This document shows, in pieces, positions 3,693-47,202 of a DNA stretch of 64,000 nt. This DNA is from Lentisphaeraceae bacterium. Lineage in GTDB: Bacteria > Verrucomicrobiota > Kiritimatiellia > RFP12 > DVOR01. The DNA lies in NCBI GenBank assembly GCA_004555175.1, contig SFJE01000002.1, positions 32,333 through 96,332 on the forward strand. The letters are read 5' to 3'. Every line of letters starts with the position of its first letter. The first letter of the stretch is position 1. Below the pieces are notes generated by a model. The model saw nothing but the letters and a program-made list of their open reading frames with translations. It searched no databases and had not been told where the DNA came from. The translations under genes were made by a program, and so were the position numbers.

Positions 3693-3707
3693 AGTATAGC
3701 ACATCCC
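3693..3707 (-). promoter_or_regulatory. extended -10 promoter GGATGTGCTATACT, 7 nt upstream of the exonuclease ATG (leaderless-type)
   Basis: Minus-strand sequence GGGATGTGCTATACT-atgaggt-ATG. The same box recurs at 11449, 18448 and 47189. Confidence 0.5.
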
Positions 3708-3977
3708 AGCCCGGCGCGTGAGCCGCTTACCGAAAGGCCACTCCTCCTCCTGCTTTCTGCAGTTCTGTGGCGCGACATATTGGCCGCGCAGCGAGCGCCT
3801 GCCCCAAAGCTCCCGGCCGCTCCAATGGCCGCGCTTTCGCTACTCCTCCGCCGCGGAAATAAGCCGCGATCGGGGCGGGCGCAAATGGGAGCCGCCCGAT
3901 GTTGGGTTGCCCCCGCCGCCCTTTCACGGCCCACAAGGCCCCTCACGCGAGCGACAGCGCACACCTCCGCAGAAAAA

Positions 3978-4172
3978 TGCAGAAGGAAAGGAACGGCGGC
4001 GCGGATTATCACGCGGCGCGGAGAGAACTAACCGCTCGGCGAAGCGCAACTAATAAGGCCCCGTCTTATTGGCAATAAGACCCCGTCTTATTCGCAACAA
4101 GACCCCGTCTTATTGGCAACAAGGCGGGGCCTTATTTATTCAAGTCGCTCGGGAAGCGAGTTAACCCAGCGC
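3978..4172 (+). repeat. interspersed ~195-bp repeat element copy A, with 4 nested AAGACCCCGTCTT-type palindromic units
   Basis: About 97% identical to 30701..30895 in the same orientation. Contains 3 CCCC-type units and 1 GGGG-type unit. Confidence 0.9.
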
Positions 4173-4202
4173 TTCAGATAAGGGTGCAGCGCAAAAAGGG
4201 CT

Positions 4203-4230
4203 TTGCTTTTGGGGTTTGGTTTGCTACAAT
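4203..4230 (+). promoter_or_regulatory. sigma70-like promoter of metK (TTGCTT-N16-TGcTACAAT)
   Basis: -35 TTGCTT at 4203-4208, a 16-nt spacer, and extended -10 TGcTACAAT at 4222-4230. This predicts a 5' UTR of about 165 nt. Confidence 0.5.
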
Positions 4231-4400
4231 GTGCGGCACGTTTGCGTTGATTTGGAAAGCGCTCCGGCTTGCGGACGCAGACGTCTTGGAACTGCACGCT
4301 AAAATGGAGGCACCGGGAGTTTCCCCATGGCGGCGGCAGGACGTGCGAGTGCACGGTCTGTCGTTTTCTTTTGGGGGCTTTGCGGTCCTGAAAGGACACT

Positions 4401-5585
4401 ATGAGCAAGTTGTTGACACGGCACATTTACACCTCGGAATCGGTTTCGGAGGGGCATCCTGACAAGGTGGCCGACGCCATCTCGGACGCGATTTTGGATG
4501 CGTGCCTGGCCTTGGATGATCGCGCGCATGTGGCGTGCGAGACGGCCTGCGGGAAGAATCTGGTGGTGAACCTGGGCGAGATTACTTGCCGGGGCTTTGA
4601 GACGCTGAACACGAAGGCGATTGCCCAGGAGATCATCCGGCGCGTGGGCTATGACAATCCGGCCGAGGGTTTCTGCTGGCAAGACTTTACCTATATCAAT
4701 AACCTGCACACGCAGTCGCCGGACATTAACCAGGGGGTGAGCCGGGCCGACCCGGAGGAGCAGGGCGCAGGCGACCAGGGGATGATGTATGGCTACGCCA
4801 CCAACGAGACACCCGAGTTTCTGCCCCTGCCGGTGGTCTGCTCGCACCGTATCCTTGCGCGCCTGGCCGAACTGCGCCACAGCGGGGCAATTGAGTGGCT
4901 GCGGCCGGACTCCAAGGCGCAGGTCTCGGTGCTCTACGAGGGCGGAAAACCCCAGGAGATTACCTCGGTGGTCTGCTCGCACCAGACGCGGGAAGTGAGC
5001 GAAGAGACCATCCACGCAGGGTTGGAAGCGGTCATCCGCGAGGTGCTCGCACCCACGGGGCTGCTGACGAACCGGACGGCCTTCCACCTAAACCCCACCG
5101 GGCGCTTTGTGATTGGCGGTCCGGCCGGAGACGCAGGAGTGACCGGGCGCAAGATTATCGTGGATACCTACGGCGGCGTGGGCTCGCACGGCGGTGGAGC
5201 CTTTTCGGGGAAGGATCCCTCGAAGGTCGATCGCTCGGCGGCCTACTACGCGCGCTACGCGGCCAAGCAGATTGTCGCGGCGGGGTTGGCCGAGAAGTGC
5301 GAGATTCAGGTGGCCTACGCCATTGGGCTGGCCAAGCCGATGAGCATCAATGTTTCCACCTACGGCACCGGGAAGGTGAGCGAGGAGGCGCTGGCGCAGT
5401 TGCTCCTTTCGGGCGAACTCTTCGACTTCCGCCCCGCCGCACTCATTCGCGACCTAGATCTCACCCACCCCAAGGGCTGGTCCTACTCCGAAAACTGCAC
5501 CTACGGTCACTTCGGCCGCACCATGGTGCCCTGGGAACGCCTCGACCGCGTGGAGGCGCTGCGCGAGGCGTTTGCTACCCGCTAG
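4401..5585 (+). CDS. metK: S-adenosylmethionine synthetase
   Basis: Hallmark SESVSEGHPDK N-terminus and a GGGAFSGKD P-loop; full length at 394 aa. Confidence 0.95.
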   Translation: MSKLLTRHIYTSESVSEGHPDKVADAISDAILDACLALDDRAHVACETACGKNLVVNLGEITCRGFETLNTKAIAQEIIRRVGYDNPAEGFCWQDFTYINNLHTQSPDINQGVSRADPEEQGAGDQGMMYGYATNETPEFLPLPVVCSHRILARLAELRHSGAIEWLRPDSKAQVSVLYEGGKPQEITSVVCSHQTREVSEETIHAGLEAVIREVLAPTGLLTNRTAFHLNPTGRFVIGGPAGDAGVTGRKIIVDTYGGVGSHGGGAFSGKDPSKVDRSAAYYARYAAKQIVAAGLAEKCEIQVAYAIGLAKPMSINVSTYGTGKVSEEALAQLLLSGELFDFRPAALIRDLDLTHPKGWSYSENCTYGHFGRTMVPWERLDRVEALREAFATR

Positions 5586-5606
5586 TGCGGGCAGATAAGA
5601 GATGAA

Positions 5607-5660
5607 AGATGACAGCGGCCTGTCCGTTGAAGGACACGCCCTGTCATCTATTTCTATCAT
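5607..5660 (+). terminator. probable intrinsic terminator after metK
   Basis: Imperfect long hairpin (agatgacagcggcctgtcc ... ggacacgccctgtcatct) followed by a T-rich tract. Confidence 0.5.
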
Positions 5661-5740
5661 CTCCCCTCTATTTTTCTGCAAAGGTCTAACTTTTCTGCTA
5701 TAATGCGGGGCGTTGTATCACCGTTTTGATGGAGAGAGAC

Positions 5741-6001
5741 ATGAGCGCAACAGTGACCGTTGAAATCTGTATGGGCACCACCTGTTATGTGATGGGCAGT
5801 GCTCAATTAGCCGGTATTGCCGAACGCCTGCCGGAAGAGTGGAAGAGCTGCGTGACCGTGAAGGGAATGCGTTGCACTGGCGCTTGCCAGAAGGCTGAGC
5901 AGTTCGGGCGCGCCCCCTTTGTGCGGGTGAATGGCGAGATTATCGCCGAGGCGGACGAGGGGAAGATCCTCTCGGCCATTCGTGCGGCTCTTGAGCAGTA
6001 A
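5741..6001 (+). CDS. thioredoxin-like [2Fe-2S] ferredoxin (NuoE/HndA-like small subunit)
   Basis: Cys pattern CMGTTC ... CTGAC. GGAGAG RBS 5 nt upstream of the ATG at 5741. A TGcTATAAT promoter box lies at 5696-5704. Confidence 0.7.
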   Translation: MSATVTVEICMGTTCYVMGSAQLAGIAERLPEEWKSCVTVKGMRCTGACQKAEQFGRAPFVRVNGEIIAEADEGKILSAIRAALEQ

Positions 6002-6029
6002 TTGAACGCGGACAAAGAGAGGAAGTGTT

Positions 6030-7472: not shown

Positions 7473-7473
7473 G

Positions 7474-8820: not shown

Positions 8821-8832
8821 GGGATTCCGCCA

Positions 8833-9279: not shown

Positions 9280-9285
9280 CCATCT

Positions 9286-10691: not shown

Positions 10692-11374
10692 CCCCTGCCA
10701 CCCGCGCCCTCGTCCTCCCCTTTGCCCTCTGGATCGGTGGCATCGTTCTCCTCCTCTTCCCGCATAGCTACGACGCGCCGGCCTACCTCTACGCCGCCAA
10801 GACCCTCCTCTGCGCCCTCGCTCTCCTCGTGCTCAAGCCCTGGCGCTATGCCCCCTGCGCCAAACAGCGCGGTGACCTCGCCCTCGGCCTCCTCGTTGGC
10901 CTAGCCGTCTACGCCCTCTGGGCCCTCCCCGAAAGCACCCCGTGGCCTGCCGTGACCGCCTGGTACCGCCGCTGGCTCGTAATGCTCCCCGGCGCACTCC
11001 CCGATTATAGCGCCTCCTGGTGCTACGCCTACCCAAGTCACCCCCTTCTCGCCCTGGTCAAACTGGTCGGCTCGGCCTTCGTCATCGCCCCCATCGAAGA
11101 GTTCTTCTTCCGCGGCTGGTTGATGCGCTCGCTCACCCAGCGCGACTGGCAGGAGCTGCCCCTGGGCAAGGTCTCCACCGCCGCCTTCTGGGCCACCGTG
11201 GCGGTCTTCGCCTTCGAGCACGACCGCTTCCTCGGTGGCGCCCTTGCCGGTCTGACCTACGGCGCCCTCGCCCGCAACACCAATTCCCTGCGTGCCCCCA
11301 TCATCGCCCACGTCACCACCAACCTCCTCCTCGGTCTCCAAGTCCTCCTCGCCGGCCACTACCACTTCTGGTAA
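10688..11374 (+). CDS. CPBP family (CAAX/Abi) intramembrane metalloprotease
   Basis: EEFFFRGWL (EExxxR), FAFEHDRF (FxxxH) and HVTTN motifs; multiple TM helices. ATGA overlap with the upstream gene. Confidence 0.8.
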   Translation: MTPATRALVLPFALWIGGIVLLLFPHSYDAPAYLYAAKTLLCALALLVLKPWRYAPCAKQRGDLALGLLVGLAVYALWALPESTPWPAVTAWYRRWLVMLPGALPDYSASWCYAYPSHPLLALVKLVGSAFVIAPIEEFFFRGWLMRSLTQRDWQELPLGKVSTAAFWATVAVFAFEHDRFLGGALAGLTYGALARNTNSLRAPIIAHVTTNLLLGLQVLLAGHYHFW

Positions 11375-11448
11375 TCCGCGCTCCCTGCCCGCGACGAAGC
11401 AATCTCCCCGTTATGCATTTAGGGGCAAGTGAGTGCGGGAGCGGGTTA

Positions 11449-11462
11449 GGATGTGGTATACT
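11449..11462 (+). promoter_or_regulatory. extended -10 promoter GGATGTGGTATACT, 7 nt upstream of the ATG (leaderless-type)
   Basis: Sequence ATGTGGTATACTGCGC is identical to 18451-18466 upstream of smc. The ATG is at 11470. Confidence 0.5.
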
Positions 11463-11469
11463 GCGCGAT

Positions 11470-14400
11470 ATGTCGAAAGCTAAGCGAGCGAACTTCTTGG
11501 AGAAGGTCGACCGGCTTGCCTTATGGGTGAGCGGGTTGACGGCCTTTGCGGTCTATCTCCTCTCGCTAGGGCCTTCAATTGGCATGGAGGATGCGGGGGA
11601 GTTGGCAACGGCAGCTGACGTGCTGGGGGTTCCGCATCCGCCAGGGTATCCGCTCTGGACGATGCTCTCGTGGCTCTTTTGCCGGGCCTTTGGGTGGGTG
11701 ACATGGCAGGGGTGGCCGAATCCGGGTTGGGCAGTGGCATTGGCGTCGGCGGTGGCGGGAGCGGCAGCAGTGGGGGTGCTGGCGGCAGTGATTTCGCGCT
11801 CGCTGAAGGCGCCGTTGGGGGCGTTAGAAGGGGGAGAGACGGTACGCGGAATTACGGGAATCGGGGCGGCATTGGCCTTTGCCTTCTCACCGGGGATGTG
11901 GTCGCAGTCAGTGATTGTGGAGGTGTATGCACTGGGAGCACTCTTTTTTTCGCTAGTGATGCTCTTGGCGCTAGATTGGCTCGTGCAGCGGCGTGGTTGG
12001 ACCTTGGTGTGGTTGGGGTTAGTCTTTGGGTTGGGGCTGACGAACTATCAGGTGTTGCTCTTGGCGGCGGTGCCATTGGGAGCGATGGTAGCGATTCGGC
12101 GGTGGCGTCTAGCGCGAAGTTTTCTCGCGGTGGCGATTCCGTTGGGGCTGACGATTTACCTGTTGCAACTGGGCGCGATGGAGAGCGCGGATGCACTTTC
12201 GACGCCAGGAGCACCAGTGATTTTGCGGCCGGAGGCGGCCGTTGAGGTGCGTTATCCCGGGGCACTGGCGCCGGAGGCGGCCGTTGAGGTGCGTTATCCC
12301 GGGGCACTGGCGCCGGTGTGGCTCTATGGCGCGTTGGCGGGGTTGGTGCTGGGGATGGCCGGCGTGGCGTGGGCGCGGCCGCGAGGGCGGTGGTGGGCGT
12401 TAGGTACCTTGGCCGGAGCACTTGGCGCGCTCTTGGCCTTCTCGGCGTGGCGCTTTGCAACGCGGGAGGTGCCCGAGGGTTTTGCGGGAACGCTCTACGG
12501 CTTTGGTCGGGCATGGGTTGTGCACGCAGTGGCATTGGGGGGGCTCTGGGCGCTCTGTTGGCGGTGGCGGCGGGCGCGACGCTTTGCCTTTGTGGTGAGT
12601 GTAGGGCAGATGGGGGCGTTGGGGTTGATGGCGCAGGGGCTGATGATGGGGCTAACGCACCCCACAACGGGGTGGTTCTGGTGGCCAATTGTGTGGAATG
12701 GAGTGGTGTTGGCGCTGGCGTGGCGGCTCTTGCCGGGCGGAAAGTGGGTGGCCGGGACGATTGGGGCAGCCGAGGCCGGGCTCGCGGTCTATGGCTATAT
12801 GCCGCTGGCTTCCGACGCGCTAAATCCGGGGATGAATTGGGGGTATGCGCGGACGTGGGAGGGCTTTAAGCACGCGGTCTCGCGCGGACAGTATGAAGCA
12901 ATTTCGCCGGCAAGCATCTGCTCGGTGGCCTATCTCCGGCAGCTGTGGGTCTATCTGGGGGACCTGCGGATGCAGTTTATGGGGCTAGGGATGACGTTGG
13001 GGGCGGCCGGGCTGGTGAGCGCGCTGGGCGTGGCGCGGCGGCGGGTGCAGGGTTATCGGGGAATGCGGCTGTGGCCGTGGGTGACGGTGGGGCTCTTTGT
13101 GATGATGTCGGCGGTGTTGGTGGCATTGGCGAATCCGACGGGGGACATCCAAGATGGCTTTATTCAGAAGGTGAAGTTCATTACCTCGCACCAGCTCTTC
13201 GCGGTGTGGATTGGCTACGGTCTGGCTTTGGCGGCGGTGGGGCTAGCCAAGTGGCGCGGGACCCGCGCGGCGGCGATTGGAGCAGGCGTGCTGGCTGCAG
13301 CCGTCGCGTTGGGGCCGATGGTGGAGAACTTCCGCGACCGCGAGTTGGTTCGGCGCGTTGGGGCCGCCGAGCAGACGGGGCACGACTTTGGGTGGCAGTT
13401 TGGGGCCTACATGATGGGCGGGGCCGAGCAGATCTTGGCCGAGGTGCGCGCAGATGAAGAGCCGCTCCCGGATCCCTTCTGGCCGCCGCCGATGAGTCCG
13501 GGGGCAGTCTACTTTGGCGGGACAGATGCCGGGCGCTTTGTGCCCACCTACCTGGCCTATGCCGTTGGCTTCCGGCCCGATGTCTGTGTGCTCACGCAGA
13601 ATGCCTTGGCCGACCCCACCTATATGAATGTGGAGCGAGACCTCTATGGCGAGCAGCTCTGGCTCCCGACCGCCGATGAGGTCCGGACGGCCTTTACCGA
13701 TTACACCAATGCGGTCCTGGCTGGAAAGCGCACGTCGCGCGGGAAGATTACCGAGGTCAATGGGCGCGTACAGATTAGCGGCTCGGCGGCCGTGATGGAA
13801 ATTTGCGAGGAGCTGGCCCGGCAGATTTGGGAACGGAACCCTGAGCGGGACTTTTATCTAGAGGAGAGCTACCGGATGCCGTGGATGGATGCGGTGCTCG
13901 AGCCCGCGGGGCTGGCGATGCGCCTGCGGCGCGAGGTGGAGGGGCGCGACCTAGCGGCCGACCGCGCGCGGAATGATGACTTTTGGGATTGGATGGTGCG
14001 CCGGCTCATCACGCGCGCGGCTTATGGGCGGGACTTTGCCGCGCAGAAGAGCTTCTCAAAGTTGCGCTCCTCGCAGGCAGGGATTTATGCGCGCAACGGC
14101 CAGGCTGAGGCGGCCGAACGGGCCTTTGGCGAGGCGATGGCACTCTTCCCCATTTCGCCCGATGCCCTCTTCCGTTACCTGCAAGAGTCGCTCCTGCCCC
14201 AGGGGCGCTTTGAGGTGGCTGGGCGAATGTTGCGGCAGTATCTGCGCGTGGATCGCGGCAATACGCGAGCCTATGCGGCCCTAACGCGCGTGGAGGAACT
14301 AGGGAAGGCCGATGCCACCTTTCGCGCCCTGACCCAAAAGGTGCGCGATCAGCAGGCCACGACCGCCGACATCTGCAATTTGGCCCGCACGGCCGAGGCG

Positions 14401-18447: not shown

Positions 18448-18462
18448 GGAATGTGGTATACT
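18448..18462 (+). promoter_or_regulatory. extended -10 promoter GGAATGTGGTATACT, 8 nt upstream of the smc ATG (leaderless-type)
   Basis: Shares 16 identical nt with the box at 11451-11466. Confidence 0.5.
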
Positions 18463-18470: not shown

Positions 18471-21400
18471 ATGTACCTCAAAGCGCTTGAGATTCAGGGC
18501 TTCAAGAGTTTTGCCGATAAGACCCGACTGACCTTCGAGCCGGGGATGATTGCTATTGTTGGCCCGAATGGGTGCGGCAAGAGCAATGTCTCGGATGCGA
18601 TTCGCTGGGTCTTGGGCGAGCAGCGGCCGAGCGCATTGCGGTGTGGCAAGATGCAGGACCTCATCTTCAATGGCACCGACACGCGCAAGCCCTTGGGAAT
18701 GGTGGAGGTGACGCTACACTTCGCCGACTGCGAGGCGGCGCTCGGGACCGCTTATAGCGAGGTCTCGATTACCCGGCGGGCGGACCGATCGGGGGCCAAT
18801 ACCTACTTTCTAAACAAGACGCCTTGCCGCTTGAAGGATATCCAGCGTCTCTTTATGGGCACGGGCGTGGGGACGACCTCCTACTCGGTGATGGCCCAGG
18901 GGCAAATCGATGCCATCCTCTCTTCAAGACCCGAGGACCGCCGGGCGGTCTTTGAGGAGGCCGCCGGCGTGACGAAGTTCAAGGCCGACCGCAAGGAGGC
19001 CCTGCGTAAAATCGCCCAGACCGAGGAGAATTTGACGCGCCTGACGGACATCCTTCGCGAACTCAAGCGCCAGAGCACCCTTTTGCAGCGGCAGGCTGAA
19101 AAGGCCGAGCGGGCCCGGACATTGCGGACTGAATTGCGCGGGCTCGATCTCTTCCTCTCTAAGAAACGCGCGCGCGCGTTGGAGGCGGCGATTGCCGAGG
19201 CCGGGATGGCGGTGGCCCAAGCGGCCGGGCGGATTCTGGCCATTCAGGACGAGGCCGAGGCCGGGGCGCGGGCGATTGCTTCGGCTAATGAGCGCATCCA
19301 CGCCGGCGAAGAGCAGATTGCGCGCTTGATGGAGCAGGCGGCCGCCAGCTCGGCGCGTCACGCCCGGGCGCTTGAGATTATTCAGACCAATGAGGCGCGC
19401 GTGGAAGAGTATCGCCGCTGGGCCGAGGGGCTTGAGCGCGAGGCCGCCGTCGCCCGCGAACAGATTGCCAAGGCGCAGGCGAACCCCGAGGCTGGGCCCG
19501 ATTTGGAGCAGTTTGAGGAAGAGCGCGAGGCACTCCAAACCCTGCTCGAGGATGCGCAGGCTGAGTATGACGACCATCGGCAGATGTTGGAGGCCACACG
19601 CCGCGCCCTGCAGCAGGCGCGAGAGGCGTTGGCCCAGTGCGACCGTCAGCAACTGCTTTGGCAGCAGCGCCTCACACAGGCCGATGCCGAGCGCGAGGCA
19701 CAGTTGCTCCGGCGCGAACGATTAGCCGCCGAGGCCGCTGAAGCCAAGCGCCTCTTGGTCGAACGGCAGGCGGCCAAGGCCTCGGCCGAAAGCGAAGCCC
19801 AGGCCCATCGCGAGGCGGCTGAAGAGGCACGCGAAGCCTTGATTACCTTGGATGAAGACCGCTCCTTTGTGGCCGACGACCGCGCGCAAGCGCAGGCCCG
19901 CCAGGAGGCGCGTCGGCGGCAGAAGGCGGCCTTGGAGGCCCAGCGCGAGGTGCTACTCAAGCCCGCCGCTGGGGAGGTGCCCGATGGTGCCCTGCGCGTG
20001 CTCTCGCCGGATAACCCCTTTGGCGTGGCGCCGGGCGAGGTGTTGGGTCCGCTAGCCGAGGCGTTGGAGATTGCGCCGGAGGCGCGGCGGGCGGCCGAGA
20101 CGGCTTTGGCCCCATGGGCACGGGCGCTGGTGGTGCGGTCAGGCGAGGTAGCCCGACGGTTGCTCGCCCAGGCGCAAACGCACTGCCCGGAGGCGACCTT
20201 GCAGATGTTGGTGGCCGAGGCGGCAGGCGCACCGGTCTTACCCGGCTCCCTGGCTGAAGCGGTGCAGGCCAAGCCGGGCTTTGAGGGGGTCTGCGCGCGG
20301 ATCTTGGGAAGGATTTGCCAGGTAGCGGAATTGGCCGCGATACCGGCAGTGTGGCCGGAGGGGGTGCGGGCCTTTGTGACGCGCCAGGGGGAGATCATTT
20401 GGCGCACAGGCGATGGCGAGCGGCTGGCCGAAGGCTGCGCAGCCGACCCGGTGGCTCGCAAGGTGATGTGCGATGAGATTGCCGAGCGGATTGCCGCACT
20501 GGAGGGTGAGATGGCCGCCGAAGAGGCCACCTTGGCCGAGGCGCAAGCGCGGTTGGAGGCGATGACCGCCAAGCTACGCGATACGCAACGGGTTCTGGAA
20601 AAGGTTCAGCGGCAGGCTGACCAGGCCGCCGGCGCCCTGGCCGCCGCCACGCGCGATGAGCGCCAAGCTGCCGTGCGGGCTCAAGAGGCCGAGCGGGCGT
20701 TGGCTGAGGTTGAGGCCGATCAGACGCATGAGCGCGACGACCGAGAGGCCGCCCGGCAGGGGTTGGCCCAGTTGACGGCGGTGCGTGCGGCACGGACGCA
20801 GGAGAGCGCCGAAGCAACCGAGCGGCTGACCGCGCTGGAGGGGGCCTACGAGACAGCTTCGGCCCGGTTGAGCGAGGCGCGCTTTAAGATGGCCGGCTTT
20901 AACCAGAAGTGCGAGCATCTCTTGGCACAGCAGCGCGACCGTGAAGCGCGGTTGCGGGAGTTGGCGCAGACGGTGGCCCAGCGCGAGCGGAGCATCCAAT
21001 CGTGCACCGAGAACATTGCGCGGCTACAGCGCGAGAGCGAACAGTTGGTCGCCTCCCTTGCCTCACTCGACGAAGAGACGCAGGCGCTGCAGGGGCAGAT
21101 TGAAACCGCGCGGCAGGCGCGTCAGGCCTTGGCCGAAATGCGCGAACGCTTGGAACAGGAGACCGCTTCGGCTCGAAAGACATTGCTGGAAGCGCAGGAG
21201 GCCAAGACCAAAGCCGAAGTGGCAATGGCCGAGGGGCGCGAGCGGTATGCCGCCTTGATGGCGCGGCTGACGAATGAGTATGGCACCCAGCCCGAAACAT
21301 TGCAGGATGAACCGTGCGCCGAGTGGCCCGAGGGCGAAACGCCCGAGGATACGTGGTTGGAGGCGCGGATGGCCGACATTCGCGAAGAGCTCGAGCGCCT

Positions 21401-22710: not shown

Positions 22711-22721
22711 TGTGATACACT
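22711..22721 (+). promoter_or_regulatory. extended -10 box TGTGATACACT upstream of nfu
   Basis: Followed by the AAGGAAG SD at 22732-22738 and the ATG at 22746. Confidence 0.4.
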
Positions 22722-30557: not shown

Positions 30558-30700
30558 TGATAAACTCCTGATCTCGAGGCTTAATCACCCTCAAAACGGC
30601 TCGAACTATACCAAACCATCACCTAAAAGGCAAGCATTTGTACCACCTGCACCCTCATTCTGCGCTCCCCGGGAACTCCGGAAATTCCGGAATAAGGGTG

Positions 30701-30895
30701 TGCAGAAGGAAAGGAACGGCGGCGCGGATTATCACGCGGCGCGAAGAGAACTAACCGCTCGGCGGAGCGCAACTAATAAGGCCCCGTCTTATTGGTAACA
30801 AGGCCCCGTCTTATTGGCAACAAGACCCCGTCTTATTGGCAACAAGGCGGGGCCTTATTTATTCAAGTCGCTCGGGAAGCGAGTTAACCCAGCGC
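30701..30895 (+). repeat. interspersed ~195-bp repeat element copy B
   Basis: About 97% identical to 3978..4172 in the same orientation. Confidence 0.9.
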
Positions 30896-31219
30896 GGAGG
30901 TGTGATGTAATGGCGGTGCTTGAACGGTTGAAACTGTCTAACGTGAAAGGAGTATGACAATGAGCAAACAGACTGATACGGACGCTGTATAAATATCAAT
31001 AGAATTGCGCACGAGGGCGGCATCGCCCCTTGCGCTTCGCCCCCGCTACGCACATCACGCTGCACGCATTTACACGCCAACCCAACGCCTCACAACAGAA
31101 AACTTTCCACCGCTATCACATTCCCGATAACCGCATCTGCTAACCCACTCCCCTCCGTCGCCTCTCCTTTCCTACCCCCCTCGCGACAAGGGGCAGCCCC
31201 TGCATAGCCTATAAAAGAG

Positions 31220-31250
31220 GCGCTCGCCAAGCATCTCTCTTGGCGAGCGC
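31220..31250 (-). terminator. 12-bp perfect hairpin (gcgctcgccaag/cttggcgagcgc) plus T-rich tail next to the duplicated ssrA 3' end
   Basis: On the minus strand this is followed by CTCTTTTAT. It looks like an orphaned original ssrA terminator. Confidence 0.4.
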
Positions 31251-31261
31251 GCGCTCAAAAA

Positions 31262-31485
31262 TTGGTGGAGGTGGCGGAAATGAGGACCTGCAAACACAAG
31301 TCTATCTTGAGATCCTATCTTGAAACTCTATCTTAATTCAACCCAAAAAACGTATAGTCCAGATAGGAAATGCAACAGAAAGTATGAAAATGCAAAAAAC
31401 AAAAATGGTGAAAAAATGGTTAAAACCAAAAAGCCCTACATACACAAAAAACTCCTTAAAGCATTGTGCTTTAAGGAGTTAAACT
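31262..31485 (-). mobile_element. putative remnant of an ssrA-targeted integrative element (att-like duplicate of the tmRNA 3' end plus ~200-bp AT-rich insert)
   Basis: The 16-nt sequence TTGGTGGAGGTGGCGG at 31262-31277 duplicates the ssrA 3' end at 31485-31500. The intervening 31279-31455 is strongly AT-rich, unlike the rest of the window. Confidence 0.35.
31456..31482 (-). terminator. intrinsic terminator of ssrA
   Basis: Hairpin ctccttaaagc acaat gctttaaggag followed by TTTTTT on the minus strand. Confidence 0.7.
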
Positions 31486-31841
31486 TGGTGGAGGTGGCGG
31501 GAATTGAACCCGCGTCCAAAGCAGCTTCACAGCGATGTCTACGTGCGTAGCCGGATCTTTGTGTCGCGCAAGGCAAGCCAACCGGCGGGCCAGACCTTGA
31601 GCCACCCTTCATGATGGTACGGTTACGTGTTCCCGAGGGGCCGGTTCACGCAGAGACCTGCGGGTTGACGCGTCCGCCCTTAGCAGGTGTCAGGGGTTCA
31701 GCGACGGGCCAAAAAGGTTAGGCCGCGTAGGCGAAGTTATCGTTCGCAGTTAGGTTTTTGATCGATGTTTTACGGGGCCAACGATCATCCCCGGCACGCA
31801 ACCGAAGTTCCGACATGCCCTGTCGAGACCTGGTCACCCCC
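31486..31841 (-). ncRNA. ssrA: tmRNA (ssrA); encoded tag peptide ANDNFAYAA
   Basis: 5' end GGGGGUGACCAGG and 3' end GGACGCGGGUUCAAUUCCCGCCACCUCCACCA (T-arm plus CCA). Resume codon and tag ORF GCGAACGATAACTTCGCCTACGCGGCCTAA. Confidence 0.9.
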
Positions 31842-31900: not shown

Positions 31901-31909
31901 TGCTACAAT
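31901..31909 (+). promoter_or_regulatory. extended -10 TGcTACAAT, 6 nt upstream of the rsmE ATG (leaderless-type)
   Basis: tgctacaat-ctcggt-ATG. Confidence 0.45.
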
Positions 31910-33800: not shown

Positions 33801-33805
33801 GCGCC

Positions 33806-37441: not shown

Positions 37442-37467
37442 GCGCCGTATCCTCCCCCCACCCCACG

Positions 37468-37508: not shown

Positions 37509-37531
37509 GAGCGATGATTGGTGACCTGGCA

Positions 37532-37575: not shown

Positions 37576-37610
37576 ATTCTGGAGGAGGGGATCGGTCCCG
37601 AGATTGCGCG

Positions 37611-38033: not shown

Positions 38034-38041
38034 GGCGGACC

Positions 38042-39322
38042 TCACGGGCGGGGGCGTTTAACGGCGGCAAAGAAGGGTTTTGAGCGGGCGCTCGCGGCGG
38101 CGGGCTTGGCTGGGCGCGGCGGACGGGGCTGGGGGGCACGCTTGGGGCGGACGGCCTCGGCGCCCATCGCGTTGCGAGCATGTTCGGAGTGGAAGGGCTG
38201 CTCGACATCTTGGGGGATGGGGCGGCCGATGAAGTGCTCGATGTCGCGCAGGGCTTGGCGGTCGTGCGGGCAGACGAGGCTGATGGCTTCGCCTTCGGCG
38301 CCGGCGCGAGCGGTGCGGCCAATGCGGTGAACGTAGGTTTCGGGCTCGTCGGGCAGGTCGTAGTTGATGACGTGGGTGACCTCGTCGACATCAATTCCGC
38401 GGGCGGCAATGTCGGTGGCCACGAGGACTTGGACCTTGCCCGAGCGGAAGCCTTCGAGGGCGCGCAGGCGGGCGGCCTGGCTCTTGTCGCCATGGAGGGC
38501 GGCGGCGGGGAAGCCATCGCGCGTGAGCTGCTTGCAGAGGCGGTCGGCCCCATGCTTCATGCGCGGAAAGACAATGACGCGGAAGCACTTGGGCGTATCG
38601 AGGACCCACTTGAGGAGGGAATACTTCTTCTCCTTATCCACAAAGAGGACGCGCTGGCGGATTGTGTCAACGGTCGGCGCCTCGGGGTTGATGCGAATGG
38701 AGACGGCGTGGCCCTGGATGAACTGCTTGGCCAAGGCCGTGACCTCCGGCGAGAGGGTGGCCGAGAAGAAGAGCGATTGGCGCTTGTGCGGCAATTTGGC
38801 CAGGACCTTGCGGATGTCGGGCAGAAAGCCCATATCAAGCATCCGGTCGGCCTCATCGAGCACCACCGCTTGGACGCTCTCGAGCGAGAGTGCGCCCTGC
38901 CCCTCCAGGTCCAAGAGCCGCCCGGGGGTGGCCACGAGCACGGCCACCCCCTTGGCCAAGGCCGCCACCTGCGGCTTGATGTTCACGCCGCCAAAGACCA
39001 CCGCACAGGGCAGGTCCAGCCCTTTGGCGTAGGCAGAGCAATTCGCCTCAATCTGCGCGGCCAGTTCGCGCGTGGGAGCCAAGATGAGCACCAACGGTCG
39101 TTTGGGGCGGAGCGTGGCGTGCGCCTGGGCGAGCCGGTGCAGGAGCGGTAAGGCGAAGGCGGCCGTCTTGCCAGTGCCGGTCTGGGCGCAGCCCATGAGG
39201 TGCTTGCCGGCGAGGATGGGCTTGATGGCCGCTTCCTGGATGGGCGTGGGGCGTTGATACCCCATCGCCGCGATGGCCTGTTGCAAGGCCGGGTGGAGAT
39301 GCGCGAAGACCGTCCCCTTCAT
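38042..39322 (-). CDS. DEAD-box ATP-dependent RNA helicase (RhlE-like) with basic C-terminal tail
   Basis: Q motif, AQTGTGKT, DEAD, SAT, HRIGRTAR. Confidence 0.9.
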   Translation of the reverse strand: MKGTVFAHLHPALQQAIAAMGYQRPTPIQEAAIKPILAGKHLMGCAQTGTGKTAAFALPLLHRLAQAHATLRPKRPLVLILAPTRELAAQIEANCSAYAKGLDLPCAVVFGGVNIKPQVAALAKGVAVLVATPGRLLDLEGQGALSLESVQAVVLDEADRMLDMGFLPDIRKVLAKLPHKRQSLFFSATLSPEVTALAKQFIQGHAVSIRINPEAPTVDTIRQRVLFVDKEKKYSLLKWVLDTPKCFRVIVFPRMKHGADRLCKQLTRDGFPAAALHGDKSQAARLRALEGFRSGKVQVLVATDIAARGIDVDEVTHVINYDLPDEPETYVHRIGRTARAGAEGEAISLVCPHDRQALRDIEHFIGRPIPQDVEQPFHSEHARNAMGAEAVRPKRAPQPRPPRPAKPAAASARSKPFFAAVKRPRP

Positions 39323-41055
39323 TGGCGCGCCTCCCGCCGCTTGCCGGGATGGCCCTTGCCGCGGCCCTTAAAGTTGCCCTTGAAGGGGCCCTTACGGCCC
39401 TTGGGGCCTTTGGGGCGGGGCGACTCGGGGGTAGCCTCCACGAACTTGGGGTTGAGCGGCCGGCCATCAAAGTCGGCCTCGCACAAGGCTTCTAGGACGC
39501 GCTCGCCGAGTTCGGCGCGCACATCGAAGAAGGCGAACTCACGCTTGATGGCAATGGCTCCGATGTCCGAGGCTTGAATACCGGCCAGTTCGCAGGCCAA
39601 GCGGACAACGGCGCCCTCGCGCAGGTGGTCTAGTCGCCCCACGTGGAGCATCAGGCGCTTGCGCTCACCGAAGGCCGCGTCGCGTTCGGCGCGGGAGGGA
39701 GCGGCCACGGGGTTGAGGTCTCGCGCGTCTTCATAGGCCTCCATCAACGAACTCAGGCGCAGCTGGAGGATACGCGCCAGGACCTCGGTGGCGGAGAGTT
39801 GGCCCATCAGCGGGGCCACGGCCGGCAAGAGCTCCTGGATGGCCGGGTTAATCTCCTGGACCTGGCGGACCTGTTCGGCCAGCCAGAAGACGTGCTTTTG
39901 GCGGACATCGTCGGCAGTCGGGATGGCGCGCTGCTCGAAGCGCAGACCGCAGATGCGCTCGATGAGGCGGAGCTTCTGGCGGTCGCGCGGGGTGACCAAG
40001 GTGATCGAGATGCCCGCCTTGCCGGCGCGGGCGGTGCGGCCGGAGCGATGGGTGTAGACGGCCGCGTCATCGGGCAGATGGTAGTGAATGACATGGGTGA
40101 TGTCCTCGACATCCAGGCCGCGCGCGGCGACATCGGTGGCCACGAGGATGCGGACAGCCTTGTCGCGGAACTTGCGCATCACCGCGTCGCGTTGGGCCTG
40201 GGAGAGGTCGCCGTGGAGGGCTTCGGCGTAGACGCCATCGTGCATCAACGCCTCGCTCAGCTTCTGGGTGTCGGCCCGCGTGCGGCAGAAGACCAAGCCA
40301 TACATTTCGGGAACGAAGTCGATAATCCGCCGCAGGGCACCGTAGCGATTCTTCTCGGCCACGGCGTAGGCGTGGTGCTCAATATTGGCCTGGGCCACAT
40401 TGCGCGTGCCGACGGTAATCTCTAGGGGCTGGTGGATGTAGCGCCCGGCGATGGCCTCGACTTCTGGCGGCATCGTGGCCGAGAAGAGCCACTTCGCGGC
40501 AGAAGCCGGCACGCGCTCGAGAATGAAGTCAAGCTCCTCGCGAAAACCCAGGTCGAGCATCTCGTCGGCTTCGTCAAGGACGCAGGTACGCACCGTGTCT
40601 AGGGCGATAGCCTCGCGCCGGAGGAGGTCGCAGAGTCGCCCGGGGGTGGCCACCACCACCTGCGCCCCGCGTTCAAGCTTGGCAATCTGCTGGCCGATTG
40701 GCGCGCCGCCGTAGCAAGCCACCACGCGCACCTGCGCCAGGTGCTTGGCAAAGCGGGCCAACTCCTCGCCAATCTGCAAGCAGAGTTCACGCGTTGGGGC
40801 CAGAATCAGCCCCTGCACGGAGGTCGCTTCGCCTTGAACCCGGGCCAAGAGCGGCAGACCGTAGGCGCAGGTCTTGCCAGTGCCCGTGGCAGCCAGGGCC
40901 ACGCAGTCGGGCGCCTCGGCAGCCAACAGGGGCGGAATAGCGGCAGCCTGAATCGGCATCGGGGCCTTAAAGCCCAGCCCCTCAACGGCCCGCAGCAACG
41001 GCTCGGGCAATCCCAAACTCCGGAACTCTCCGGTCTCTTCGCACATCGTCATCAA
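39319..41055 (-). CDS. DEAD-box RNA helicase with DbpA/CsdA-like C-terminal RNA-binding domain
   Basis: ATGTGKT, DEAD, SAT, HRSGRTAR, plus a C-terminal DbpA-like region and an RGG/K-rich tail. Confidence 0.9.
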   Translation of the reverse strand: MMTMCEETGEFRSLGLPEPLLRAVEGLGFKAPMPIQAAAIPPLLAAEAPDCVALAATGTGKTCAYGLPLLARVQGEATSVQGLILAPTRELCLQIGEELARFAKHLAQVRVVACYGGAPIGQQIAKLERGAQVVVATPGRLCDLLRREAIALDTVRTCVLDEADEMLDLGFREELDFILERVPASAAKWLFSATMPPEVEAIAGRYIHQPLEITVGTRNVAQANIEHHAYAVAEKNRYGALRRIIDFVPEMYGLVFCRTRADTQKLSEALMHDGVYAEALHGDLSQAQRDAVMRKFRDKAVRILVATDVAARGLDVEDITHVIHYHLPDDAAVYTHRSGRTARAGKAGISITLVTPRDRQKLRLIERICGLRFEQRAIPTADDVRQKHVFWLAEQVRQVQEINPAIQELLPAVAPLMGQLSATEVLARILQLRLSSLMEAYEDARDLNPVAAPSRAERDAAFGERKRLMLHVGRLDHLREGAVVRLACELAGIQASDIGAIAIKREFAFFDVRAELGERVLEALCEADFDGRPLNPKFVEATPESPRPKGPKGRKGPFKGNFKGRGKGHPGKRREARQ

Positions 41056-41064
41056 TCGTCATCC

Positions 41065-42321: not shown

Positions 42322-42839
42322 GGCGCCTCCTGCCCGGCCGCTTGCTCTAGGTGCTGCGAGCGCACGCGCGCTTCGCCTTGAGCCGCAGGGTCATACAGAA
42401 AAGGCTCCTCCCAACCATCCTCCAAGGCCGCTTGGCGCAGCAATCCCTCGCTAACCAACTCCTCCAGCTTTGCCGGCGCGCTCCCCCCATAGGCCAGCGA
42501 ATACTCCAAGAGTGCCGCCCGGATTTGCCGCAAGCGCAGGAGCGTTACCCGCCGCGCTTCAACGCCGGGCATCACATAGCGATACCATGAGCCTGTTGCG
42601 TCATCCGTTTGATAGGCCTCGCCCGGGGCCTTGACCGCCCGGCCGAGGTTTCCATAGCAAATGCCAATCCCCATGCCGATGGTAATAGCCGCAATCACGG
42701 CACAGACCGGCCCCGAGAAACGAGCGGCACGCGCCTGTTTCTGGCGCGCCAAACGCCTCTCCGGCACCCGGCTCTTCGCCTGAGAGGGGCGCCGGAGAGA
42801 GGCTTTGGGGCGATGGCGTCTGCGCCGGACGTGTGCCAT
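42318..42839 (-). CDS. hypothetical single-TM protein, weak GspG-pseudopilin-like C-terminal region
   Basis: Basic N-terminus, one TM helix, LLEYSLAYGG ... DPAAQGE block. Start overlaps the glyA stop (TAATG). Confidence 0.35.
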   Translation of the reverse strand: MAHVRRRRHRPKASLRRPSQAKSRVPERRLARQKQARAARFSGPVCAVIAAITIGMGIGICYGNLGRAVKAPGEAYQTDDATGSWYRYVMPGVEARRVTLLRLRQIRAALLEYSLAYGGSAPAKLEELVSEGLLRQAALEDGWEEPFLYDPAAQGEARVRSQHLEQAAGQEAP

Positions 42840-44524
42840 TACGGCACCGGGAAGTGCGCCACGAGCGCGCGCACCTCTTCACGCACGCGCTGCTGGAGCG
42901 CGGTGTCTTCGGGCGACTTGAGGATCTCGACGATCCAACCGCCGAGCTTGACCATCTCGGGCTCCTTCATTCCGCGCGTGGTCACCGCAGCGGTACCGAT
43001 GCGGATACCGGAGGTGACGAAGGGGCTCTCGGTGTCGTAGGGGATGGTGTTCTTGTTGCAGATGATGCCCGCAGCATCCAACGCCGCGGCCGCCAGCTTA
43101 CCCGTCAGCCCCGAGGCCTTCACGTCCACCAGGAAGAGGTGGTTATCCGTGCCCCCGGAGACGAGCCGGAAGCCAGCCTCCTGCAACACCTTTGCCAGCG
43201 CCTGCGTATTGGCGACAATCTGCGCGGCATAGGCGTGCGCATCGCGGTGGAGCCACTCGTTAAAGCAAACCGCCTTGGCCGCGATAACATTCTCCAGCGG
43301 ACCGCCCTGGATGCCCGGGAAGACCGTCTTATTGATGGCCCCGATGTACTTCTCCTTGCAGAGAATGAGGCCCGAGCGCGGGCCGCGCAAGGTCTTGTGT
43401 GTAGTGGTGGTCACGAAGTCGGCATAAGGCACCGGCGAGGGGTGAACGCCGCCAGCAATCAGACCGGCAATGTGGGCCATATCCACCATCAAGTAGGCGC
43501 CCACCTTGTCGGCAATCGCCCGGAAGCGGGCAAAGTCAATCACGCGCGGATAGGCCGAAGCGCCCGCCAAGATGAGCTGGGGCTTGACCTCCATCGCCTG
43601 CGCCTCAATCGCGTCATAATCGAGCTGCTCGGTCTCCTTGTTCACCACGTAGGGGACAATGTTGTAGAGCTTGCCCGAGAAGTTCACCGGCGAGCCGTGG
43701 CTCAAGTGGCCGCCCTGATCCAGGCTCATCGAGAGAATCGTGTCACCCGGCTTGAGCATCGCAAAAAAGACCGCCATATTCGCCGCGCTGCCGCAGTGCG
43801 GCTGGACATTCGCCGCCTCGGCCCCGAAGAGCTTCTTGGCGCGCTCGATGGCCAACTGCTCGACCGCGTCCACCGGCAAACATCCGCTATACCAGCGCTT
43901 GCCCGGATAGCCCTCGGCGTACTTGTTATTCAGCACCGAGCCCTGCGCCTCGCGCACGGCCGCGGAGGTGTAGTTCTCCGAGGCTATCAGGTTGACCGTC
44001 TCATCCTCCTGCTTCACCTGCGCGACAATCGCCGCATGCACCTCAGGGTCGGCCCACGCCAAGAGCGAAGACTCGGCCAGACGGCCCGCGCGGTCGCACT
44101 TCACCAGGCGTCGGGCGTGACGCTCAGCCCCCGAGAACGGCGTATCCAGCCACACGCCCAGGGCGCGCTCGGCCGCAGCCTCGCTCAACGCGCGGGCCGA
44201 AAGGATTAGGACATTGGCATCATTATGCTCGCGCGAGAGCTTCGCCACCGCTTCATCGGTGACAATCGCCGCGCGAATACCGGTGAAACGGTTGGCCGTG
44301 ATGCTCATCCCAATCCCCGTCGAGCACAATAGCACCCCGCGATCGGCCTTCTTCTCCAAAACCGCCTCGCAGACCGCCACCGCAAAGTCCGGATAGTCAT
44401 CAGCGGCTTCGGCGTTGAATGAACCCACATCCACCACCGTCTCGCCGCGCGCTTCCAGCACCGCAGCCAACTTCGCCTTCAGGGCTACGCCCGCATGATC
44501 GCAACCAATCGCAATCGTACTCAT
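42839..44524 (-). CDS. rpiB-glyA: fusion protein: ribose-5-phosphate isomerase B (N-terminal ~145 aa) fused to serine hydroxymethyltransferase
   Basis: RpiB signature IAIGCDHAG ... [11 protein letters not shown] followed in the same frame by SHMT blocks [36 protein letters not shown]. Start at MSTIAIG with AGAGGAG upstream. Confidence 0.8.
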
Positions 44525-44609
44525 CTCTCTCGTATGCTCCTCTTTCGGAATGTCGAATAAAGAAAACGGCGAAAGTATACCACAATCCCACCCCGTACGC
44601 GCACAATGC

Positions 44610-46748
44610 CTACGGCAGAAAGACGAGTTTGCCACCCTTACTATTCTTGAAAAGAGCCTCTGGCGGGAACCAATCTGGCCGTAGCCCCGTGCGATAATCG
44701 TTGGTGCGATAGAGCGCAAAGTTCAAGTGAAGTTGTGGGGCGGAGGGATCTGCAGCATCGGGCCGATAGCCGTCAATCAGTGTGGTGGTCAAACCATAGA
44801 GTGCGCGCGAATCATAGGTGGGCGTGCGGACGCACAGCACGGGCTTGCCAGCCTCAAGTGAGGCCTTGATCCGCGGGAGCAAGAGCGGCAGGGTGACTTC
44901 ATCCAGCGTAACGATGGGCCCAAGGAGGGCTCTCGTCTGCTCTGGCGTGAGCCCCACTGCGCGCGCCTCCGTGGCGAAACTGGGCGGAATCTGCGAGGGG
45001 CCCGGCTTGAGTTGCAGGGCGCGGGTGCAACTCGCATCAAAGTCCTCGGGGAAGGCCCCGGCATAGAGTCCGGCCTCCTCGGCAAGAGAGATGGCCCAAT
45101 GGTAGGCGGCCGCAAGGTCTTGGATTGTGGGGCTATAGCGCGCATAGGGGCAACCGGGGAGGATGTTGTTGGGCTGCAGATGGAGGCGTTGACAGTTGAA
45201 ATCGGGCTTCTTGCTAGTCTTCCCAACAGGATGATGCCAGAGGGCCATCAACTTCACCAAGGCACACGCGCCGCTCTTGTTATAGAGGTAGCCTTCGGAA
45301 TCGTAGTGCAAATCGCGCGGTGGGACGGTGTAGCCATCTAGCAACAACGCTGGCACTTCGTCCACCTCTTTCGGCAGCGTAACCTGATGGCACTCAGGAG
45401 AGTACGCCACGCCATAGGCATTCTTGGCATAGGCGCGCACATACAGCGTAGAGCCGGGCTTGAGACCGGTGATGCGCGTGGTGTCACGCCAATCCGAAAA
45501 GCCCCAAAGCGGCCAAAGCCCCTGCTTGATGGTGGGGTTGGGGGTGGACGCGTAGCAAAAGCCGTAGTCGGTGTAGGGCTCTTCTCCGCGGAAGTGCACG
45601 GTGAGGGTGGCGCGCAGGCTGGTGGGCAAGAGCTCGCGGGGCTCTTCCAGGTGAACCACTGGCAACATCGAGCGCTTGAGCGCTTGCCCGGAGAGGCGGC
45701 TTGCGGGGACGGTCACCGTCACCTCTGCGCCCGTTTCATCCTGGGGTCCAAAGGTGATCTCAACGCCCGTGGGCAGGCAGTTAGGGAGGCGATTAGGCGG
45801 GTCACTCTCGACCGAGAAGTCATCTCCCTCACGAAAGATCGCCAAGGGACTCTCTGGCTTGATGCGCTCATAGCGGAAACGCCCGGGCGCGACCTGCACC
45901 CGTTGATACCCTTCCTTGGCGTTGGGGTCCGGGGCCGAGCGCCCGCGGAAGTAGGGATCGCGCTTGCGATAGGAATAGACCAAGTCGGGCGTGCCGTGAT
46001 AGGGATCAGACTGTGGCACGTTAATATAGTAGATAAGGATGCCGCCGCGCGGAGAGTACGAATCTGTAACCTTCCCGATGGTGTTCTCTGTGGGGCCGTT
46101 GTCAAAGGTCTGCACCTCATCGGGTTCATACTCCAAGTGCAGGAGGTAGTTAGGGTGCTCGGTGGGGATAAAGATGCCCAGGGGTGTCTTGCCATCAAAC
46201 TCGCCCCAGCGCGGGGCCAACTTCACTGTGGTGCTTTGGTGCAGCGTGGGATAGGCTGCCGCCGGCAACAGACCGCAATAGCGGTAGCGGCAGTAGAGCG
46301 GCGCGGTAGGCCCGCCGCCGGCGATGACGGGATGACCGGGAATGCCGTTATCCTTCTGCGGAGCGTGATAGGTGTCAGGAGCACCCAGCACATGCCCCAA
46401 CTCGTGAATCATCGTGCTGGCACCCCCCTCGGCTTTGACGATAATGCGCGAGTTCGGCCACAAAGGCTCCCCCCAGGCAATGTAGAAGTTGGGGTTGTAA
46501 TCCTTGAGCGGATCTATGTCGCGATCCTCGCGGAAGCCGACGGCCCGCCGTTCATCTTCACTCTGGGAGTAGTGACTGACGGGGTAAAGCTTGCGCAACT
46601 CCGGCAACTGCTCCAGCGAGCGCGGATGGGTTGAATCCTTGCTGGTGACCGGCAGAATCTTCGTGGCGTAGGCCAGCACGCGCACATCCACCTTATCAGC
46701 CCGTTTGGAGGAGCTCCTCAACGCCGCAACACCCCCACCACTCCACAT
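44610..46748 (-). CDS. putative HExxH zinc metallopeptidase (M6/InhA-like motif [13 protein letters not shown]) with FN3-like region; N-terminus uncertain
   Basis: No signal peptide or RBS at any in-frame start; the ORF opens with TTG at 46775. Possibly truncated. Confidence 0.45.
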
Positions 46749-46974
46749 GCTAGCCGCGTGCGCGTGTGCACGCAAGTCGACAGTGAACAGTCGACAGGAC
46801 GCGGCAAGCCGCGACGGACGGGCTCTCGTTAGAAGTATTGAGCTTCATCGTTTCAGACTTTCGCTTGTTCGTCGCGTTAGCGCACGGCGACTCGACTGTC
46901 GACTATTCACTCTCCTCTGTCGGCCGGGCGCAACCTCCCCCATGCCGGGCGAAAACCTCCTCCCGGGGCGGGAG

Positions 46975-47047
46975 GAATTATTAAGACCCCGTCTTAATTC
47001 AAACAAGACGGGGTCTTATTTGCAATAAGACGGGGTCTTATTAGTTT
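46975..47047. repeat. partial copy C of the palindromic-unit repeat (3 AAGACSSSGTCTT units, mixed orientation)
   Basis: ttattaagaccccgtcttaatt ... aagacggggtcttatt ... aataagacggggtcttatt. Confidence 0.8.
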
Positions 47048-47188
47048 GTATATGGGCGAGAGGCAATTTCCTGGTGGTGTGATTGAAATGGCCCTTGCGT
47101 GAAGGCGGCGCAGAAGGTGCGAATGGGCCTAGCGCAAAGGCCAGACGCGTTGCAAGTGGGAGTGCTGTCACGTGCACATCGAGTAAGG

Positions 47189-47202
47189 GGATGTGCTATA
47201 AT
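47189..47202 (+). promoter_or_regulatory. extended -10 promoter GGATGTGCTATAAT of dnaB
   Basis: Same GGATGTGSTATAMT box as at 3693, 11449 and 18448. GGAG SD at 47218 and ATG at 47229. Confidence 0.5.

Follow-up and report, generated by a model that had tools for sequence, protein, structure and literature searches.

A box of 14 nucleotides, GGATGTGSTATAMT, recurs upstream of four genes in the 64,000-nucleotide stretch of Lentisphaeraceae bacterium DNA analysed here (assembly GCA_004555175.1, contig SFJE01000002.1, positions 32,333 to 96,332; hereafter the window). The genes code for a DnaQ-like exonuclease, a DUF2723 membrane protein, SMC and the helicase DnaB, and three of the four act on DNA. 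A preliminary description of the window had suggested that a regulator site lies in the GGATGTG part of the box, marking out a cell-cycle or replication regulon, and that three of the genes are transcribed without a leader. This raises the question of whether the box is a dedicated regulatory site or a general promoter, and of where the transcripts begin. Our comparison with related loci suggests that the four boxes are probably near-consensus copies of a -35-independent TRTGn-TATAMT housekeeping promoter of the lineage rather than the site of a dedicated regulator, and that a switch reserved for DNA-replication genes is most likely the wrong description of the box.

The recurrence of the box was confirmed. 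With at most one mismatch it occurs four times in the window, compared with 0.01 copies expected from dinucleotide-preserving shuffles; three copies are exact, and the copy at smc carries one mismatch. The sites described earlier were correct, while two of their coordinates were each off by one base (Table 1 gives the revised positions), and the identities of the four genes were borne out by Pfam. A longer repeated or mobile element was considered and rejected, as similarity among the four sites stops about 3 nt either side of a core of 14-17 nt. The hexamer in the box is TATACT at three sites and TATAAT at one, matching 5 or 6 of the six consensus positions. If the hexamer is taken as -12 to -7, TG would lie at -15/-14, a T at -17, and the GGA that is common in the genus at -20 to -18. 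TG one base 5' of the hexamer is present in all four boxes, and so is TGTG (T-17, G-16), giving the core TGTG-S-TATAMT. The looser pattern TGNTAYAMT occurs 9 times in the window (1.2 expected). The extended -10 element is known to occur as TRTG, with transcription start sites (TSSs) centred 7 bp after the -10 hexamer (PMC12641261), and T-17G-16T-15G-14 is the extended -10 motif of Mycobacterium tuberculosis (PMC6212719).

Loci of relatives (designated L001 and so on) were gathered with dnaB, smc, exonuclease and DUF2723 queries and amount to about 540 kb in total; a metagenome scan with SMC gave 6 loci. DnaB is found at 97% identity in gut metagenome-assembled genomes (MAGs) of Candidatus Spyradenecus (Kiritimatiellota) and at 62-75% identity in other Kiritimatiellia or 'Lentisphaeraceae' gut MAGs, and identical contigs were also seen in gut read sets. 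The window is accordingly assigned to Candidatus Spyradenecus. For the promoter alignment, the window and about 40 related loci supplied 110 non-redundant TGNTA[TCA]A[ACT]T sites; a smaller alignment comprised 65 sites. A T two bases 5' of TG (-17) is present at 90 of the 110 family sites (82%, 1.37 bits), the base after it (-16) is G at 34, A at 27, T at 41 and C at 8, and the base 5' of it is T or A at 86. Since T-17 is general among the family sites, the ATGTG-S-TATAMT part of the box is best taken as the general TRTG extended -10 promoter of the lineage. Among all 49 fetched loci, the exact box turned up nowhere but upstream of dnaB, in this species and its sisters; the exact 14-mer is therefore specific to the species group, although the motif class is general. 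Two further promoters, GTTGTGCTATACTGCGCG and GTTGTGGTATCAT, were present in 5.5 kb of the same genome beyond the window, reached through the protein at the left edge; no record of the exact kinase-like protein was found.

No -35 element was apparent in these alignments, positions -40 to -20 carrying no information in either the 65 or the 110 sites. A glycoside-hydrolase gene, identified from the Pfam families of its orthologue in L001, is preceded by the one clear classical -35/-10 promoter observed in the window (Table 1), which indicates that -35 elements can be read by the RNA polymerase as well. Upstream of dnaB, TGnTAnnnT preceded by T was found in 23 of 26 Spyradenecus-clade relatives (L003-L026), for example GATTGTGGTATGCT, GATTATGATAAAAT, TTTTATGGTATACT and GCATGTGGTAGAAT. 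In the sister loci L004-L006, where the upstream gene order differs, homology to the window sets in at precisely 47187, and the DNA on the 5' side is unrelated. This breakpoint is the G-run of GGGGATGTGCTATAAT (GGGGATG), at about -22. Thus, the dnaB promoter appears to be self-contained from about -22, with no need of a -35 element.

As TRTG is generic, only the GGA at -20 to -18 is left as a possible specific site. An operator formed by GGATGTG or GGA, overlapping the extended -10 element, could place the exonuclease gene, smc and dnaB, and perhaps rpiB-glyA and the ligA operon too, under common cell-cycle control, although we regard this as improbable. Several counts from the window weigh against a purely generic promoter. 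Exact GGATG is present at 3 of 11 strict window sites, compared with about 0.03 per site expected from the product of family column frequencies, and GGAT in any of three registers is present at 4 of 11 window sites and at 4 of 99 elsewhere; this excess means that the generic promoter model is not a full explanation. In the window, most GGA-type promoters also stand before DNA-related genes or operons (exonuclease, smc, dnaB, ligA operon), a pattern that is small and post hoc but would still fit a regulon. In a hand count, G-R-A-(T) stands just 5' of about 8 of 13 TGTG/TATG promoters in the window and sister species. GGAT is kept at dnaB in L008, L009 and L013, at DUF2723 in L042, and at the exonuclease gene in L045, L048 and L040, and conservation of the dnaB promoter among sister species begins at GGGGATG. 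On the 64 kb of sequence analysed, a genus-specific factor might still act at these promoters.

However, a larger body of observations speaks against a replication regulon. DUF2723 carries the exact box and is not a DNA gene, and GGA-type flanks are also found before rpiB-glyA and the kinase-ligA-nadE operon. In relatives, GRA(T)-TG flanks precede genes for a membrane protein and two secreted proteins, gdhA and miaB, in addition to dnaB and the exonuclease gene, while GGA is absent before DNA genes other than the queries, namely mutS (L008, L040), parA (L014, which has CGATG), a holA-like gene (L043), and dnaA and dnaN (L041). It is also absent from the smc orthologues, including those at 85%, 67% and 65% identity, and from 3 of 7 exonuclease orthologues, the others keeping GGAT at a shifted distance. 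The distance from GGAT to TG shifts by 0-2 nt among dnaB and exonuclease promoters, and a search covering about 50 nt upstream and 70 nt downstream of each site revealed neither CATCC/ATCC nor a second GGAT. The two same-genome promoters beyond the window (GCGTTGTG and CCGTTGTG) both read GTTGTG, and neither has GGA. GRA flanks were counted at 8 of 51 sites in G+C-rich relatives compared with 0 of 59 in A+T-richer ones, where T-runs replace them, suggesting a compositional, clade-level flavour. In addition, the loci were fetched with dnaB, smc and exonuclease queries, so the apparent enrichment of DNA genes is biased. With TGTG generic, GGA lacking a dyad and the gene set mixed, the proposed replication or cell-cycle regulon was unsupported. 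Two known kinds of site were also considered for the box. A DnaA box (TTWTNCACA / TGTGNAWAA) was rejected, because TGTGCTATA and TGTGGTATA mismatch at two specified positions. A target of a FokI-type restriction-modification or methylation system found no support, as GGATG is not avoided (226 copies compared with 159 +/- 11 expected).

The flank might alternatively be part of the promoter itself. GGA or a G-run at -18 to about -25 could be a lineage-specific basal element read by RNA polymerase, an idea that is compatible with a general housekeeping promoter and that we hold as a tentative possibility. The 'Z-element' described for -35-less promoters is a spacer element contacted by the core enzyme near -18 to -22. 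Read as a basal element, the flank would help -35-less promoters in the G+C-rich members of the family, and the aligned sites have no -35 signal. The flank in the genus is G-rich and not C-rich (GGGGTGGGATT twice, plus GGGGAGGGGATT, GGGGGGGAGTT and GGGGATG), counted from TG, G at -5/-6 and A at -4 are weakly enriched across the family, and the synteny breakpoint coincides with the G-run of the dnaB promoter. On the other hand, the sample is small (about 15 genus promoters) and the register variable, and strong promoters of the same genome do without GGA, such as those of nfu, a phosphoribosyltransferase gene, a rubredoxin gene, metK and rsmE. The G-rich flank could also simply reflect local base composition.

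The second question is where the transcripts of these genes start relative to their start codons. The distances given in the preliminary description held: 7 nt separate the hexamer from the ATG at 3685 (minus strand) of the exonuclease gene (ATGAGGT), 7 nt from the ATG at 11470 of the DUF2723 gene, and 8 nt from the ATG at 18471 of smc, with 6 nt at rsmE. As this leaves no room for a transcribed Shine-Dalgarno sequence (SD) between hexamer and ATG, the candidate leaderless genes have no usable SD. At dnaB, 26 nt lie between hexamer and ATG 47229, with a GGAG SD at 47217-47220, 8 nt before the ATG, and the leader described for this gene is predicted at roughly 19-20 nt. The start codons themselves are backed by homologues. 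The SMC N-terminus MYLKALEIQGFKSF is conserved among orthologues, which supports ATG 18471, and the first residue is shared by the exonuclease orthologues, the homologues of this protein numbering more than 2000 and being mostly 265-280 aa long. For DUF2723, the starts of close homologues fall only a few residues away from ATG 11470; a CPBP/CAAX-protease-like gene, read in a different frame and ending at 11374, takes up part of the open frame 5' of 11470, and third-position G+C is 0.47 in this extension compared with 0.71 inside the DUF2723 gene. A longest-open-reading-frame rule extends smc to a GTG at 18453, inside the -10 region of smc itself. Similarly, the start of the DUF2723 orthologue in L042 (10001) was called 11 codons 3' of its likely ATG, which lies 8 nt after the promoter.

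The same arrangement was found across the family. The distance from the hexamer to the ATG of an open reading frame (ORF) of at least 100 codons was surveyed at 113 strict sites. At 6-11 nt there were 28 ATGs at 27 sites (two ATGs at one site), compared with 3.2 expected from random positions; none lay at 12-16 nt, and 42 lay at 19-40 nt. This bimodal spacing, with a gap at 12-16 nt, is the expected signature of two classes, leaderless and leadered, and is typical of genomes that mix the two (group C of GeneMarkS-2), in which a Pribnow box 6-8 nt from the gene start marks bacterial leaderless genes (PMC6028130). For Kiritimatiellae, SDs have been predicted at about 63% of genes (PMC10783764). 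Among orthologues, TRTGnTAnAMT precedes the ATG of smc in 4 of 5 (spacings 8, 8, 9 and 11 nt), and a TRTG-like extended -10 element precedes the exonuclease gene in 7 of 7 (7, 7, 10, 10, 10, 6 and 9 nt). A hexamer lies near the ATG of DUF2723 in 3 of 4 orthologues (7, 8 and 11 nt), for example AGGATGTGGTATCCT followed by 8 nt and ATG in L042 and TTTGGTATAAT followed by 11 nt and ATG in L044, the fourth copy being inside an operon. For rsmE the count was 2 of 2 (6 and 10 nt), the L007 orthologue having TGCTACAAT 10 nt before its ATG. The intervening bases change across species while the 6-11-nt spacing stays, and the start codon of all leaderless candidates is ATG. Other genes of the leaderless type in relatives are mutS, parA, a holA-like gene, purD and hisH, and those for an M16 peptidase, a SpoU methylase, a major facilitator superfamily (MFS) transporter and a type II secretion system (T2SS) ATPase, several of these names being assigned from the N-terminal sequence alone. 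Thus, the exonuclease gene, DUF2723, smc and rsmE are predicted to be leaderless, smc possibly with a 1-nt leader, a prediction well supported by comparison: the architecture proposed earlier for the first three, and likened to it for rsmE, is kept in orthologues and is statistically strong family-wide.

Some points tell against this prediction. We infer TSSs and the mode of translation, and with them the leaderless state, from spacing and conservation only. Spacings of 10-11 nt would give leaders of 3-5 nt rather than none. A pyrimidine at -1 of the ATG was found at 23 of 27 leaderless-type and 33 of 48 leadered sites (Fisher p = 0.17), so this base was set aside as uninformative for independent evidence of the TSS, the leadered controls being similar. 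The promoters could be real and the genes still leadered, with true starts further 3' or with transcripts arriving from upstream promoters or read-through, the spacing being incidental. Read-through is possible at smc and DUF2723, each of which lies 50-95 nt after a gene on the same strand, and GGAGGG 4 nt before the ATG in some exonuclease orthologues is a possible SD on a longer transcript. Nevertheless, this explanation is very improbable. Alignments with homologues fix the N-termini, species share the 6-11-nt spacing although the sequence between hexamer and ATG differs, and the gap at 12-16 nt marks two distinct spacing classes. Moreover, the exonuclease gene diverges from metK, and so has no upstream source of read-through.

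Taken together, a leaderless housekeeping promoter at these genes would work as follows. From established sigma70 biology, sigma region 2 of the primary holoenzyme would read the hexamer, and sigma region 3.0 would read TG or TRTG, stabilising the open complex and making a -35 contact dispensable. RNA polymerase would start about 7 nt (range 6-9) 3' of the hexamer, so that at the exonuclease gene, DUF2723, smc and rsmE the start point would be the A of the ATG or lie within 1-4 nt of it. The resulting mRNA would begin with AUG and have no SD, and the ribosome and fMet-tRNA would recognise the 5'-terminal AUG by the leaderless route. At dnaB, rpiB-glyA, nfu, metK and others, the same type of promoter would be followed by an ordinary leader with an SD, T-rich at dnaB and other leadered genes. 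The box would be common to three DNA-related genes because many operon-first housekeeping genes carry close-to-consensus promoters.

We know of no TSS mapping in Kiritimatiellota, and the closest likenesses come from other phyla. As far as the list in PMC2613000 and the summary in PMC12641261 describe them, the TRTGn ('-16 region') promoters of Bacillus subtilis and other Firmicutes (Voskuil and Chambliss) consist of T-R-T-G, one base and a TATAAT-like hexamer, and the boxes of the window, always TGTG-S-TATAMT, have the same build. Across the family the first T is present at 82% of sites, and the next base is a purine at 55%, T at 37% and rarely C. Unlike B. subtilis, in which most sigma-A promoters keep a -35 element, the sites described here come from Kiritimatiellota, a phylum of the PVC (Planctomycetes-Verrucomicrobia-Chlamydiae) superphylum, have no -35 signal and carry a G-rich flank in the genus. 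Mycobacteria also combine a TGTG extended -10 element with a G+C-rich genome, have a Pribnow box 6-8 nt from the start at a sizeable minority of operon-first genes, and mix leadered and leaderless transcripts (PMC6212719; PMC6028130; PMC4633059). However, the phyla are unrelated, most mycobacterial promoters are TANNNT without TGn, and mycobacteria also use GTG, whereas the leaderless candidates here all start with ATG. An experimental precedent within the PVC superphylum comes from another gut bacterium, Akkermansia muciniphila (Verrucomicrobiota), for which Cappable-seq in the mouse gut placed about 10% of TSSs on annotated start codons as leaderless (PMC4782308). It belongs to a different phylum, and -35 and -10 signals were reported there, whereas no -35 signal is seen here. 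In Deinococcus deserti, similarly, a -10 box lies directly 5' of the start codon with the TSS at or very near the AUG (PMC4007540), and about 60% of mRNAs are leaderless, whereas here the share is about one in four strong extended -10 sites.

Table 1. Window positions of the box copies, the other promoters and the box-bearing genes.
Feature	Position	Strand	Sequence and remarks
Box, exonuclease promoter	3693-3706	-	GGATGTGCTATACT; parts are GGA + TGTG (TRTG) + C + TATACT
Box, DUF2723 promoter	11449-11462	+	GGATGTGGTATACT
Box, smc promoter	18449-18462	+	GAATGTGGTATACT, one mismatch; with 18448 added reads GGAATGTG...
smc promoter, full	18448..18462	+	GGAATGTGGTATACT
Box, dnaB promoter	47189-47202	+	GGATGTGCTATAAT
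dnaB promoter, full	47187..47202	+	GGGGATGTGCTATAAT
RNase_T-family/DnaQ-like 3'-5' exonuclease gene, 276 aa	2855..3685	-	Pfam PF00929, E = 3e-18
DUF2723/TMEM260-like glycosyltransferase-type membrane protein gene with TPR repeats, 1129 aa	11470..14859	+	Pfam and N-terminal alignment with homologues
smc gene, 1185 aa	18471..22028	+	Pfam SMC_N, SMC_hinge
dnaB gene, 503 aa	47229..48740	+	Pfam DnaB, DnaB_C
rsmE promoter	31901..31909	+	TGCTACAAT, ATG 31916 after 6 nt; of leaderless type, lacking both TRTG and GGA
metK promoter	4222..4230	+	TGCTACAAT, then 170-nt leader
2Fe-2S-ferredoxin-like and Fe-hydrogenase-like genes' promoter	5696..5704	+	TGCTATAAT; leadered, SD GGAG
nfu (NifU-like) promoter	22713..22721	+	TTGTGATACACT; leadered, SD AAGGAAG
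rpiB-glyA promoter	44574..44590	-	GGGATTGTGGTATACT; box with one extra T; gene leadered, non-DNA
Kinase-like/ligA/nadE operon promoter	63776..63793	-	GGGATTTATGCTAGAAT, ATG after 10 nt; box with two extra T
Classical -35/-10 promoter	58042..58070	-	TTGACT-17 nt-TACTAT, before 1258-aa glycoside-hydrolase gene (54234-58010)

Several of the remaining promoters of the window (Table 1) are leadered. An SD of the AGGA/GGAG type was present in 8 of 8 leadered window genes inspected, and the normal leaders attributed earlier to metK, nfu and the gene at 5741 were borne out, with leadered promoters and with SDs at the leadered genes inspected. At rpiB-glyA the sister species L003 reads GGGATTATGGTATACT, indicating that the R position of TRTG varies. 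This gene is a single ORF (42839-44719, minus strand) that fuses a ribose-5-phosphate isomerase B domain to serine hydroxymethyltransferase, and its N-terminus also follows an equivalent promoter in L017. Leadered transcripts across the family have a T-rich tract at about +3 to +6, 10-12 nt beyond the hexamer (0.4-0.5 bits, 65 sites), for example GCGGCCTCTTTTTTGGAG at dnaB (47211-47216) and CGCCGTTTTCTTT at glyA; it may be a U-rich translation enhancer or a start-region element. The metK leader (4231-4400, plus strand, roughly 170 nt) has a mildly stable fold (z = -1.6), and no Rfam family, riboswitches included, matched it even at E <= 1; it may be an undescribed leader responsive to S-adenosylmethionine (SAM), or simply a long untranslated region. 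Directly 5' of the kinase-ligA-nadE promoter, a G+C-rich hairpin with a T-run, AAACACCTTGGGCGC...GCGCCCAAGGTGTTTTT (63800-63845, minus strand), probably terminates the gene before it and is packed closely against the promoter that follows.

Two RNA gene calls were also recorded in the window. A tmRNA gene (31486-31841, minus strand) scored 160 bits in Rfam and codes for the tag ANDNFAYAA. A second copy of the 3' end of the gene, CCGCCACCTCCACCA, lies about 220 nt downstream (window 30620-31500, minus strand), and beyond it comes an A+T-rich stretch in which TTGTTGCCAATAAGACGGGG(T/C)C stands three times in tandem. The arrangement resembles what an element once integrated at ssrA would leave behind, with duplication of its att site. 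ARAGORN called a 92-nt tRNA-Leu(CAG) at 39776-39867 (plus strand), within an ORF of high third-position G+C on the opposite strand (39319-41055); this call is probably a false positive.

Extended -10 promoters and leaderless genes are both known kinds, and what is new here is the lineage. In a wider reading, which goes beyond the four boxes and which we consider rather doubtful, Spyradenecus and its G+C-rich Kiritimatiellota relatives would express most housekeeping genes from -35-less TGTGnTATAMT promoters with an extra GGA(T) element at about -18 to -25, either a new basal element or a place where a global factor binds. The start codon would directly follow about one in four of these promoters, which would make this a previously unrecognised leaderless-rich lineage in which genes for replication, segregation and repair (smc, dnaB in some species, the DnaQ-like exonuclease gene, mutS, parA, holA) are preferentially leaderless. 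No new regulatory system is revealed by these results. What they offer is a working promoter and start-site model for the uncultured gut phylum Kiritimatiellota, consisting of TRTGnTAnAMT, no -35 element, and start codons 6-11 nt 3' at roughly a quarter of strong promoters. Gene callers biased towards the SD misplace starts at leaderless genes, as at DUF2723 in L042, and the longest-ORF rule misplaces that of smc. The model would thus be of practical use for gene-start annotation in Kiritimatiellota MAGs, and would also aid the design of expression tools.

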